Shown: in pieces, positions 4,533 through 16,812 of the stretch
How the letters are laid out: the number at the start of each line of letters is the position of its first letter
Numbering within the stretch: the first letter of the stretch is position 1
Virus genome (UHGV): UHGV-0052151
Source of the DNA: a virus
DNA length: 24,638 nt
Reading direction: 5' to 3' (one strand)
The notes under the pieces: generated by a model
Seen by the model: only the letters and a program-made list of their open reading frames with translations
Told to the model about the DNA's origin: nothing
Databases searched by the model: none
Made by a program: the position numbers and the translations under genes

Positions 4533-4803
4533 GTTTCAGTTCCTCGATCCGGCGTTGTCGTTGTCTCAGATGTGCGCTGGTCTGTTCTGCTTCGGCATAG
4601 AGCCGCGCCTGCTCCCGGTTATTGGTTTCAGTCAGAATGGACAGGCTGATAAGCTGGCTGTTGCTCTTTGCCAGTGCCTGGCTTTTGCTCTGCAGCTCGT
4701 TTGCCTGCGTGCTGATGGTCTGGCTGGCATCAGCCAGCCGCCACGTCTGCCAGCCCAGCGCCGCTAGTAATAACGCCAGCACAACCAGCAGCAACCGGTT
4801 CAT
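4375..4803 (-). CDS. lysB: Inner-membrane spanin (Rz/LysB-like)
   Basis: 142 aa; N-terminal TM segment MNRLLLVVLALLLAALGW, then charged helical region; ATGA overlap with lysA stop. Confidence 0.7.
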   Translation of the reverse strand: MNRLLLVVLALLLAALGWQTWRLADASQTISTQANELQSKSQALAKSNSQLISLSILTETNNREQARLYAEAEQTSAHLRQRQRRIEELKRENEDLRHWADTPLPADIIRLRERPALTGGAAYRQWLSASDAVSAGAGSTAH

Positions 4804-12195: not shown

Positions 12196-12228
12196 AGTTT
12201 AAAATCACCAAGACATGAGCATTAAAAC

Positions 12229-12894
12229 TTAAAGATCCGGATCTACAGGCTCATGATATAGATTTACAGGGTAATGAATAACTTCATAATTCAGTTGAGT
12301 AACTGTGTGAACATGCTGGCTATAAAAAACCAATGGATTTTTTTGACAAGGAGTAATCGTTATAGATTTACAGGCATGAATTCTTGGTGCGAATTTATCT
12401 AAATGCGCCTTCCAGTTGCTCATCATTTCATTACATTTTCTATTACGAGTATAGATAATCAATCCACCACTTGCGCTGTCTACGGTCCCTGTACTATATC
12501 GCTCAGTGAGTTGAGCATACCCTTTAAATAAATAACTATATGAAGATGTATGTTTTTTGGCTTCGCCATGCCAAATATAATCCTTTAGTTTTATTGTAAT
12601 ATCACAATGTCCGCGCTGATTATTTTCATGATATGCTTCAATGCCCATATCTTTATTTTTGATATTGGCCAATAAAATTAAAGTAAGCTGATCTTCTGTT
12701 AAATCGAAGTTTAACTTATTTGAATTCTCTTCTATTTCCTTTACAGCAGAATCAAGTTCAATCCTGACAAATTGTTTGAAATTATCGTACGATTGAAGTG
12801 CAAATCTAACACGAGTAATAGAAGCATTAATACGCTGAAGAAAAATATCATTATCAATATCAGCCAAACTCATTGCTGCAGACATTTTTAACAT
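12229..12894 (-). CDS. Hypothetical protein, third gene of AT-rich three-gene operon; weak PD-(D/E)xK-like motif
   Basis: 221 aa; ATG at 12894 shares one base with the upstream stop (TGATG); AT-rich codons; segment GHCDITIKLKDYIWHGEAKK; no family recognised. Confidence 0.6.
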   Translation of the reverse strand: MLKMSAAMSLADIDNDIFLQRINASITRVRFALQSYDNFKQFVRIELDSAVKEIEENSNKLNFDLTEDQLTLILLANIKNKDMGIEAYHENNQRGHCDITIKLKDYIWHGEAKKHTSSYSYLFKGYAQLTERYSTGTVDSASGGLIIYTRNRKCNEMMSNWKAHLDKFAPRIHACKSITITPCQKNPLVFYSQHVHTVTQLNYEVIHYPVNLYHEPVDPDL

Positions 12895-13328
12895 CAGATA
12901 ATATCCTTTGATTTAGATTCATCTAATGTAAAAAAAGGAAATACGAATGACTTATAGTCATACATAAGCTCCCCTGTAAATGGGTTTGCTAAAGATTGAC
13001 TGATTTCCGCCTCAATAACTTCCTCTATTTCAAGTTCTACAGGGTCATGAAAATCATCAACGAACCAATAATTGAGTTTTAAAAAATCAACCTTTGGGCT
13101 ACAAAGAATTTGTATGGCCGGATAGATAACCTGCTCATACGTTTCTGGCTGTAAAACCTTATTATAACCACCAGCTATATTAAATAAATCCTTATAACTT
13201 AAAGCTATATTTGATGATTTTTTAGCCCTTGCCTCGATTTCATCGTACAAATAGCAAGCTAACGCCCCAATTTCAGGGCGTTCTGCACACATTTCTTTGA
13301 TGATCTTGGGCATATCACCATCCTTCAT
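12894..13328 (-). CDS. Hypothetical acidic protein, second gene of the operon
   Basis: Track ORF 12894-13340 (TTG); ATG at 13328 with GGAG 6 nt upstream preferred; acidic C-terminal half (EIEEVIEAEISQS...); no family recognised. Confidence 0.55.
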   Translation of the reverse strand: MKDGDMPKIIKEMCAERPEIGALACYLYDEIEARAKKSSNIALSYKDLFNIAGGYNKVLQPETYEQVIYPAIQILCSPKVDFLKLNYWFVDDFHDPVELEIEEVIEAEISQSLANPFTGELMYDYKSFVFPFFTLDESKSKDII

Positions 13329-13340
13329 TGCTGACTCCAA

Positions 13341-14447
13341 TTATAATATCAGCTTTGTGAGGGTTTCGAAATCATCTTTGGATATACATTTACTTAATAT
13401 AGCATAGTTAACAGGAGAGCAACTACTCCCTCCTAGATGCCTGCGGAGTGTTCCCGGAATGATAAGCTCTACGTTATCCGCTAATTGCAGTTTTGGATTA
13501 TTTCTATCAACTCTAATTCCAATACGATACAAACCAATACTGCCTACTGCTTTGATGCCTTCCTTATTAAACAAATCATCACGTAAGTCTTTAGTGGCCA
13601 CATTTTTCTTTTCTTTATGCGTAGTCCCCTCATTCGTCAAAAATGACAAATCAAAGACTTTATAGCTTAATTTTGAATAAGGCAATGAATTTTGTTTGAA
13701 AATTGGCTCAATTAACGGATAAAAATCTTTTTCCGATGATTTAAATTCATAACCGACATGATTATACAATTCACGAATAATGTTACTCTTTGCAAAAGTA
13801 ACATTATCACCAATAATATTACCATTAGTATCTACCAAAACATGAATTTTATTAGTAACAGAGTCTAATATACAGACATCAAAACATTGTCGCTTTTCTT
13901 TTCGCTTTGCAATAATTTCATCAAACTGCTTGTATTGCGCAAGTGCTGACGGGGGAATTTTTTCTCTTACAACTAATTCTCTGACAGATGAAAAAACAAG
14001 TATTGACTGGGTGTTTTGAATAGAATAATTAACAAGTTCAGGTTGATTTTTTACAGCATTTTGCAATTGGACATCATCAAGGATCGAATCAACCAATAAT
14101 GATGGTTGATTCATCAAATTCCATTGAAAACTAAATCTGTCATTTAGTGTTTTAATTACACTATTATCTACAGTCAAACTAAATATTGCTTTTTCACCAT
14201 AAACGACCTGACCAAAAATTAGGTCATTTACGTTTGCCATAATGCCATCAAACTTTTGCCTATCTTTACTTTTAAGATCAATGAGGCTTTCTAGTATTTT
14301 TTCGTTTGTTGCTTCACGCCCCCTACCTGTTGGCAGCCCTAAAGACGCAATAATTGGCCTTGCAACGTTCCATGTGAAACGTTCAGTTAAGGTCAAGATC
14401 GACTTTAACTCAGACTTAGAAAGCACTACTGGGACACTACCTGTCAT
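13341..14447 (-). CDS. Hypothetical protein, first gene of the operon
   Basis: Track ORF to 14456 (GTG); ATG at 14447 preceded by AGGTG; about 368 aa; no P-loop or other motif recognised. Confidence 0.6.
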   Translation of the reverse strand: MTGSVPVVLSKSELKSILTLTERFTWNVARPIIASLGLPTGRGREATNEKILESLIDLKSKDRQKFDGIMANVNDLIFGQVVYGEKAIFSLTVDNSVIKTLNDRFSFQWNLMNQPSLLVDSILDDVQLQNAVKNQPELVNYSIQNTQSILVFSSVRELVVREKIPPSALAQYKQFDEIIAKRKEKRQCFDVCILDSVTNKIHVLVDTNGNIIGDNVTFAKSNIIRELYNHVGYEFKSSEKDFYPLIEPIFKQNSLPYSKLSYKVFDLSFLTNEGTTHKEKKNVATKDLRDDLFNKEGIKAVGSIGLYRIGIRVDRNNPKLQLADNVELIIPGTLRRHLGGSSCSPVNYAILSKCISKDDFETLTKLIL

Positions 14448-14597
14448 AACTTGCACCTAGTCATCCAAAAAGCAATAAGAATTTGCTCTTGTCTTAATTT
14501 ATCCTTCGATACCTAACAAATTACCTCAATGTTGAAAAAATTTGCAAGCCATTTGCTTCTAAAAAGCGACCTTACTCAGAGTGTTACAAAACTAAGC

Positions 14598-14633
14598 GAG
14601 CGCGCGCTCGTATCCCCGCCACGCCTGCCCGCT
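14598..14633. other. Candidate cos (cohesive-end) site
   Basis: Minus strand reads GGCGTGGCGGGGATACGAG; its first 13 nt match the P2/186 19-nt cohesive end as I recall it (GGCG[A/T]GGCGGGGAAAGCA[C/T]). It sits in a GC-rich island between Q and A, where cos is expected; a 14-bp perfect palindrome CGAGCGCGCGCTCG (14598-14611) is adjacent. Confidence 0.4.
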
Positions 14634-14947
14634 TTATGTAGTGGTTTTCATGCACCTGCATGTTCTACGTAAAAGCCCGCTAGTTCTGGCGAGCCTTAGC
14701 AAAAACGATCCTTAAACGATCATGCGATTTCATGCAGCATAGTCATGCACTGTCTAAGAGAAGTGAAAGTCCGTATCTGAATGACCACTTGAAAAACGAA
14801 ACATACAGACTTACAAAGATGAAGCTCTACTGTGAGCGAGGAACATACATAGTTGCTCTGTAATAGCCAAATTTTAAGCAGGAAATCTCTTTTTTATGAC
14901 AAAACTATAAAGAAAAACAGACCGTTTCATCGCTCGATGAAAATATA

Positions 14948-16525
14948 CTACAATACTTTTCTCTCGATGGTATTTTTAATAGTCAACATATCTTTAGGAA
15001 TACTTTTTTTCCCCTCTATACGTATGGTAAACACAAAAAGAATAACGGCTGATCTCACAATTTTCATGAGTTGTAAGAGCTGTTTCTCAAACTTTTCTTT
15101 CTCAATAAACCTCACCTCATCAAAAAACCCATAAGAATTATATAAATCAACTAACATGTCTTTCTCGTGAATAACTAACAGTTTATGTTCTAAATCATTC
15201 CTCCATTCTTTAAAAAAAGCAAGCTCACCATTTTTATCATTCAAATCCATAGCAATACTAAACAAACCCAGCAATCCTTTATTATTTATTTTGTTTATTT
15301 TAAGCTTTCTTTTTTCATCACTAATCCGCCAGAAGTTATGAAAGTATATATGTCCTCTATCTGGTTTTAAATCAAATAATTGACACAGAGCAACTGCTAT
15401 TTTATCCAAGATACCAAAGCAAGCTCTAAATGCAACCCTTAACTTCTCAACATTTTCATACAATATTTCTCCATTATACAATTCAGAATAACATACCTCC
15501 GAATCCTCATCAAAAAACTCACTATCAACCTTATATTCAAAAAACATTTTTCGTGCTAAGGAATACTCAGCTTTAAGTCTATTTAACACCATTTCCATTG
15601 GCACTATAAAATCACCAAACACACCTTCCTCGGTGGTAGCAATAGTTATATTATCTTTAGATGACGCATAACAATTGCAATATAGCGAATGATCAGACAA
15701 CATTAGATTATTATCTATACAAAACCTCTGGTAGTTTGATAAAGTATCATACTCCTCCTGCGTGAGCCTTTCATCTGTACTTATATCCTCTATGCCATAT
15801 ACACATGATTCACTCAATATACTTTCGTTGTACTTTATTTTTCTTTGAAGAGCAACCTTCCATGAAGGAAAACATTTCCCTGACTTTATTGCACACTCAT
15901 AACCTCGAATAACTTCTTTAATCATTTTATATGTATATGTTGTAGATAATTCATTAAGCAATTCTAATGCCTCAGATCTGTTTACCCACGCCTGAGGAAT
16001 TGAGTTATCAATAGATATTGCTTGTTCATAATAATCCATTGATTCAGATATACGATATTGTTTTTTTAATACATTAGCTAGATTAACTATTAAATCAGGG
16101 GGCACCCATCCATCTTCTTGTGAAAGTTTAAACGCTTTCCAGTAATTATTTTTTACATCATTCAGCTTAATGAAACTATCAATATCTGCATTGTCATTAG
16201 GATTAAAATCAAGAACTGCGCTCATTCCATTTGCCAAGTTATAGTAATATAAGGATTCTTTCATTATAGTCAGAAATTCATTTTTATTGTTTATAAAGAT
16301 ATTTAAGCCTTCCTCTGCTATATTTTTTACATTACTAAAACTTCCGATATCAATAAGATTTCCGGCCAAATTAGATAATATAATTATTCTATTTTCTTTG
16401 ATTGTATTTATCTCATCGATACCGTTAAGAATATCCTTTACATTTTTATAGGCAGAATCAAATGAACCTGCATTAATAAGATCATCTACGAACCCCATTT
16501 TTGAAACAACATAGTTGATATCCAT
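14948..16525 (-). CDS. Hypothetical 525-aa protein; helical/TPR-like N-terminal region, C-terminal Rx4H (HEPN-like) motif
   Basis: ATG at 16525 with AGAGGA 6 nt upstream; strongly AT-rich; occupies the old/tin position of P2; no Walker A, no reverse-transcriptase YxDD motif; WRNDLEHK near residue 442. Confidence 0.6.
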   Translation of the reverse strand: MDINYVVSKMGFVDDLINAGSFDSAYKNVKDILNGIDEINTIKENRIIILSNLAGNLIDIGSFSNVKNIAEEGLNIFINNKNEFLTIMKESLYYYNLANGMSAVLDFNPNDNADIDSFIKLNDVKNNYWKAFKLSQEDGWVPPDLIVNLANVLKKQYRISESMDYYEQAISIDNSIPQAWVNRSEALELLNELSTTYTYKMIKEVIRGYECAIKSGKCFPSWKVALQRKIKYNESILSESCVYGIEDISTDERLTQEEYDTLSNYQRFCIDNNLMLSDHSLYCNCYASSKDNITIATTEEGVFGDFIVPMEMVLNRLKAEYSLARKMFFEYKVDSEFFDEDSEVCYSELYNGEILYENVEKLRVAFRACFGILDKIAVALCQLFDLKPDRGHIYFHNFWRISDEKRKLKINKINNKGLLGLFSIAMDLNDKNGELAFFKEWRNDLEHKLLVIHEKDMLVDLYNSYGFFDEVRFIEKEKFEKQLLQLMKIVRSAVILFVFTIRIEGKKSIPKDMLTIKNTIERKVL

Positions 16526-16812
16526 TCAATCCTCTTTAAACTAAGCTAATAATACCAATCATTATATGGATGAGATCAATATAGAACATGCCATCTCCGG
16601 CAAAAATCGTACTACATCAGACCAGTGCCCTTCAAATAATATAAATTGAACTTAGATACTTCTGCTTCAACCAGTGTGTTAAATCCATCGCTTGAACTCA
16701 GAACAAAAAGCGGACGATCACTTATCAAAATGGCCGTCCACCTAACGCCTCGTTTCACTCGTTGCCCAAAATAGTCCCCCATCAGAATGAATCCTCTTGG
16801 GGGCAACGTTTC

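Follow-up and report, generated by a model that had tools for sequence, protein, structure and literature searches.

An LA2681-family TPR-HEPN protein with an invariant Rx4H motif as candidate anti-phage ribonuclease of a P2-like Escherichia coli prophage

Does an R-x4-H spacing near the C-terminus of a phage-encoded protein of 525 amino acids mark a genuine HEPN ribonuclease (RNase), and what would such a protein do in a phage genome? This question is raised by the virus genome UHGV-0052151. Its whole analysed stretch of 24,638 nucleotides (the window) matches, with 100% identity, a P2-like prophage in E. coli isolate F437 (NZ_OY754398.1). An original prediction, made from the letters of the DNA alone, had pointed to the segment EWRNDLEHK of this protein as a HEPN-like motif. 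Judged from sequence conservation and a structure model, R442-x4-H447 almost certainly represents the catalytic motif of a true HEPN domain of the LA2681 family (residues ~300-510). Taking all observations together, the gene is probably best explained as encoding an RNase that brings about abortive infection as a single protein, with TPR as its sensor. The argument rests on the following features.

14948..16525, minus strand: coding sequence of the 525-residue TPR-HEPN protein (listed open reading frame (ORF); annotated in E. coli F437, NZ_OY754398.1)
15806..16525, minus strand: N-terminal all-helical TPR domain, residues ~1-240, presumed sensor or interaction module
15014..15601, minus strand: HEPN domain, residues 309-504, Pfam PF18733 HEPN_LA2681
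15185..15202, minus strand: R442-N-D-L-E-H447, predicted Rx4H catalytic motif at the end of helix-3, followed by a beta-hairpin (449-453/471-475) and helix-4 (476-507)

The reverse complement of 15182..15205 reads TGG AGG AAT GAT TTA GAA CAT AAA and translates into W441-R442-N443-D444-L445-E446-H447-K448, which confirms the R-x4-H spacing (R442, H447); the glutamate that opens the segment, E440, is encoded just beyond these coordinates at 15206-15208. The motif begins 84 residues from the C-terminus and thus lies in the C-terminal region, as had been noticed. We also agree that six residues alone are weak evidence. In 20,000 shuffles of the 525-residue protein, 17% contained at least one Rx4H and 43% at least one Rx4-6H, and the protein itself carries another, non-conserved Rx5H at residue 390. 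The motif is raised above this chance level by its conservation in homologues and by its location inside the Pfam HEPN_LA2681 match.

Residues 309-504 match PF18733 with E=1.8e-38 and 132.4 bits over profile positions 9-204 of 204, the curated gathering threshold of this family being 27 bits, and the RefSeq name of the protein agrees with the assignment. Weak Pfam matches to TPR were observed at residues 145-174. The TPR fusion expected for the LA2681 family according to Table 1 of Anantharaman et al. 2013 (PMC3710099) is present as well. Profile searches against PDB sequences returned nothing but TPR proteins for the full-length alignment and no matches for the C-terminal alignment. PADLOC, NCBIfam and PHROGs gave nothing informative for this protein, and none of the PADLOC-DB v2 defence-system models matched it, with similarities at noise level only (TPR, E 3.5e-4; Csx1/Csm6, E 0.074).

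A search of 5.8 billion proteins yielded 182 homologues, nearly all of 515-545 residues and with the same Pfam domain. With a profile of the C-terminal half, 1332 clusters were recovered at E<=1e-3 from 1.84 billion cluster representatives; among the best 150 of these 1332 clusters, most proteins have 500-550 residues and carry the domain at residues ~250-525. No variation was seen at R442, N443, E446, and H447 among 38 full-length homologues with 38-84% identity (alignment A1). In a further 38 relatives of 18-40% identity (alignment A3), only nine columns remain invariant, namely R158, E161, C283, C285, D291, D374, R442, E446, and H447, and at least 90% conservation was found for N443 (with a single D), H279, and K375. 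The arginine and histidine of the motif are thus invariant in all 76 aligned sequences. Due to this invariance down to 18% identity, the motif is, together with an equally conserved block in the linker, the most conserved feature of the family and no chance match.

The HEPN definition of Anantharaman et al. 2013 (PMC3710099) places the Rx4-6H at the end of helix-3 or at the start of the loop to helix-4, with a polar residue (N, D, or H) following the arginine and a conserved acidic residue in helix-2 that is positioned beside the motif. The polar residue is N443. A model of residues 250-525 alone (predicted local distance difference test score (pLDDT) 83, predicted TM-score (pTM) 0.86) contains two long helices (307-334 and 357-384), an insert of helical structure, a helix at 437-447 ending in the motif, a beta-hairpin, and another long helix at 476-507. 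This modelled layout is that of HEPN domains in the sense of the cited paper, with the motif on the final turns of helix 437-447; for Csx1, too, a beta-hairpin following the motif is described there. The structure prediction that had been proposed as a check thus returned a HEPN arrangement of the C-terminal region and not some other bundle, and the HEPN-like reading is supported by the Pfam match, the invariant R442/E446/H447, and the predicted helical bundle alike. A Foldseek search against the PDB gave no significant match (best E 0.5), with HepT toxins at the top of the list. In the catalogue of Rousset et al. 2022 (PMC9122126) the corresponding system is labelled "1 TM". This label is probably explained by the hydrophobic helix 476-507, which is modelled as a buried helix-4 with a block-mean pLDDT of up to 96.

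Two further conserved elements lie upstream of the motif.

15401..15406, minus strand: D374-K375 of "ILDK" in predicted helix-2; D374 invariant and K375 nearly so down to 18% identity
15650..15706, minus strand: block L-x-L-[SN]-E-H279-x2-[YFH]-C283-x-C285-x5-D291-[DN]-L, residues 274-292 (alignments A1 and A3)

By its conservation and modelled position, D374 is a candidate for the upstream acidic residue of the HEPN active site. The linker block is conserved like the catalytic motif, with C283, C285, and D291 invariant and H279 almost so at identities down to 18%. It is situated upstream of the Pfam HEPN_LA2681 boundary, between the TPR and HEPN domains, and is modelled mostly as coil (block-mean pLDDT ~78-92). 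The block lies outside the Pfam model, and no mention of it was found for the LA2681 family in the passages of Anantharaman et al. 2013 (PMC3710099) that were consulted. Such a combination of His, Cys, Cys, and Asp points to metal binding, or to a hinge that connects the sensor with the nuclease. We know of no element like the H279/C283/C285/D291 block in characterised HEPN defence proteins.

As to the surroundings of the gene, the F437 prophage encodes tail, lysis, capsid, terminase, and portal proteins, gpA, a CI repressor, and an integrase. A low-GC island at 12200-16600 (28-40% GC versus ~55% in the phage backbone) is located between the portal gene Q and the replication gene A, around cos, with the HEPN gene on the gpA side. 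In P2, the site between gpA and cos is occupied by old and tin, accessory genes that exclude other phages. Gene order was the same in all seven E. coli loci inspected: gpA, a small hypothetical gene, a DinI-like gene, the HEPN gene, cos, a variable cassette, and Q. The variable cassette across cos is a 3-gene module in the window and elsewhere the retron Ec67, AIPR, PIN, a P-loop NTPase, or a small hypothetical protein. Furthermore, the 3-gene module was also found in other E. coli without the HEPN gene (hits H2-H9). Since the HEPN gene occurs with varying partners and the 3-gene module occurs alone, the former represents an autonomous single-gene cassette. The HEPN gene is a self-contained, horizontally acquired cassette in the gpA-cos-gpQ region of P2, a validated anti-phage hotspot.

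The island is divided in two by a cos-like region at 14598-14775 (stretch "ctcgtatccccgccacgcctgcccgc..."). Positions 14598-14660 are nearly identical to the cos-proximal stretch of the P2-like insert pFR109 (Rousset et al. 2022, PMC9122126), and 14599-14775 is conserved (~88%) in 58 P2-like phage records of Klebsiella, Salmonella, Escherichia, and Yersinia. Even with two mismatches allowed, the cohesive-end sequence of P2 was not found in the window.

In case of E. coli loci with the HEPN gene that lack the 3-gene module, the match to the window runs to position 16810 (query position 4651), and hence a piece of upstream DNA belongs to the cassette.

16526..16810, minus strand: non-coding DNA upstream of the gene, moving with it and presumed to hold the gene's own promoter

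Sites in a consensus promoter scan were no more numerous than in shuffled sequence, and Rfam at its gathering thresholds gave no match in the window. The 287-bp gap between the DinI-like and HEPN genes contains an unannotated ORF of 64 residues with a TTG start on the same strand (16612-16806, minus strand), which likewise travels with the cassette; this stretch is probably non-coding promoter or leader sequence.

Across cos, the 3-gene module of the window (12229-14456, minus strand) encodes proteins of 371, 148, and 221 residues and is situated between cos and the portal gene Q. No match of these proteins to Pfam, PADLOC, or NCBIfam was found; they correspond to PHROGs 12777, 11490, and 9664, which are function-unknown entries. 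In Table S5B of Rousset et al. 2022 (PMC9122126) the module forms one entry apart from that of the HEPN gene. Compared by length, its proteins differ from those of the tested "hp+hp+hp" system pFR109.

The HEPN gene is carried by 11 of 5426 complete E. coli genomes, and all copies are at least 99.5% identical. A tblastn search of 50,697 phage GenBank records did not find the protein. In E. coli ECONIH5 (NZ_CP026202.1, 4536-6077), 1577 of the 1578 bases of the gene are matched, and the annotated coding sequence of 1542 nt has a differing C-terminal end; this copy may be frameshifted or decaying. Outside E. coli, five genera were examined, in which no neighbour is conserved and the settings are mobile or defence-related. 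The homologues of Yersinia and Cellvibrio adjoin AbiEii, that of Vibrio is located in a Tn7-like element near a Cap4 nuclease, and that of Pseudomonas in an integrase island with a PAAR toxin. A homologue of Salmonella enterica (ABYWSB010000008.1, 6001-7578), 81% identical, is situated in a lambdoid prophage next to the antiterminator-Q gene, which indicates that the cassette moves between accessory-gene sites of unrelated phage types.

This identification is not new. The LA2681 family and its TPR fusion were described computationally in 2013 (Anantharaman et al., PMC3710099). Table S5B of Rousset et al. 2022 (PMC9122126) lists the P2-hotspot system 100, "HEPN_LA2681/RNPP_C", with 33 occurrences and the remark "Likely a RNAse". 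System 100 is catalogued only, being absent from the cloned and tested systems of Tables S2A and S2B of the same paper. Both the HEPN identity and the likely-RNase call are thus already known from the RefSeq annotation and this catalogue. By the score of DefensePredictor, in addition, a protein of the LA2681 family counts as a predicted defence gene, and no sign of a validation was found. A literature search including full text retrieved only the 2013 paper for the LA2681 family, with no experimental work on it and no defence phenotype. pFR83 ("HEPN-TPR") and pFR103 ("Putative HEPN") of Rousset et al. 2022, tested without a reported phenotype, were considered as relatives and rejected, with E values of 2.1 and 1.1 in a comparison covering the 399 residues shown.

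How might the protein work? Following established HEPN biology, it would be a metal-independent endoribonuclease whose active site is formed by two HEPN domains pairing their Rx4H motifs. Kept inactive in the lysogen, the enzyme would be switched on once its TPR domain has bound a protein or peptide that an infecting phage provides; cleavage of tRNA or mRNA would then stop translation and abort the infection. The parts of this scheme deserve different degrees of confidence. On the whole of the analysis, RNase activity of the TPR-HEPN protein is quite likely, and an anti-phage role is favoured with somewhat less assurance. The assignment of the TPR domain as the sensor is tentative, with the balance of our judgement tilting slightly to the doubtful side. 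A broader proposal is more speculative still, and we would rather doubt than endorse it in full: LA2681-type TPR-HEPN proteins, with ~1300 clusters at 50% identity, could represent a widespread anti-phage system that needs one gene only. Here the HEPN RNase would be released upon direct recognition of a phage protein or peptide by the TPR array, and E-H279-x3-C283-x-C285-x5-D291 would serve as a switch, metal-binding or allosteric, that links the sensor to the nuclease.

A true HEPN domain could also reside in a protein that is not an anti-phage effector, be it in the service of the prophage itself, e.g., by processing RNA of the host or phage in lytic growth or as a prophage-stabilising toxin, or as a HEPN protein that only binds. 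Some HEPN families are indeed non-catalytic or engaged in RNA processing (Anantharaman et al. 2013, PMC3710099), the gene is found among toxin-antitoxin modules in Cellvibrio and Yersinia, and the lack of a PADLOC model match and of a defence phenotype in the literature would fit this interpretation, too. However, a binding-only role is at odds with the invariance of all catalytic residues (R, N, E, H, and the upstream D), and a core phage function with the accessory and rare nature of the gene. No adjacent antitoxin-like partner is conserved in the E. coli loci and the five other genera. The cassette lies in the old/tin slot and swaps alongside validated defence systems. On these grounds we regard a role other than that of an anti-phage effector as unlikely.

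Far less probable is a single multi-gene system made up of the HEPN protein and the neighbouring 3-gene module. Both lie on the same strand in one contiguous low-GC island, but they occur separately, as described above for either partner, they are listed as separate systems by Rousset et al. 2022 (PMC9122126), and cos lies between them; joint action of the two was rejected because of the independent occurrence and the intervening cos. Finally, a chance Rx4H in a helical non-HEPN protein, for which the frequency of the motif in shuffles and the lack of a significant Foldseek match might be cited, is effectively refuted by the Pfam HEPN_LA2681 match and by the invariance of the motif in close and distant relatives.

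For the preferred reading as an abortive-infection RNase, the gain in annotation is nil, as the HEPN name stands in RefSeq and the likely RNase in a published catalogue of the P2 defence hotspot. What remains is an experimental lead: a compact cassette of one gene whose catalytic signature is intact, together with a plausibly protein-sensing TPR domain and an invariant Cys/His block. The cassette has a clear natural context, in which it swaps alongside retrons and Abi genes. If validated, the design of TPR sensor and HEPN effector would join the few prophage HEPN nucleases with known triggers (HepS, Tha), and a function would be obtained for ~1300 protein clusters.

Compared with known systems, the protein is a direct member of the LA2681-like HEPN family (PF18733, 132 bits) without architectural difference, and as far as the table of Rousset et al. 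2022 shows it is identical to the protein of system 100, at the same locus. The old and tin genes of P2 occupy the same gpA-cos slot, but their products are unrelated to the HEPN protein, OLD being an ATPase-TOPRIM nuclease. The HepT/MntA (MNT-HEPN) systems, e.g., SO_3166 (PDB 5yep, 8xdj, 7ae2), comprise small toxins neutralised by an adjacent nucleotidyltransferase antitoxin, whereas the protein described here has no MNT partner, lacks the tyrosine of Rx4HxY (H447-K-L), and is fused to TPR. Sensors other than TPR characterise the sensor-HEPN fusion RNases Csm6/Csx1 (CARF-HEPN), PrrC/RloC (ABC ATPase-HEPN), and DS-11 (CBS-HEPN, PMC13092281); a TPR array in place of a nucleotide-binding CARF, CBS, or ATPase domain points to a ligand of protein or peptide nature. 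HepS and Tha are prophage HEPN nucleases switched on by phage tail proteins (PMC13043305). Tha belongs to another HEPN family and has no TPR domain. HepS of the Gifsy-1 prophage is, like the protein described here, a prophage-encoded single-protein Rx4-6H HEPN; it is held inactive until a phage structural protein binds to it directly, and then cleaves tRNA anticodons (PMC13043305). It differs in being a tetrameric stand-alone HEPN of fewer than 250 residues without TPR, and in residing in a lambdoid instead of a P2-like prophage. Due to its stand-alone architecture, its length, and its assignment to another HEPN family, HepS was rejected as a family member; in our assessment it would nevertheless serve as the best functional model for the TPR-HEPN protein.
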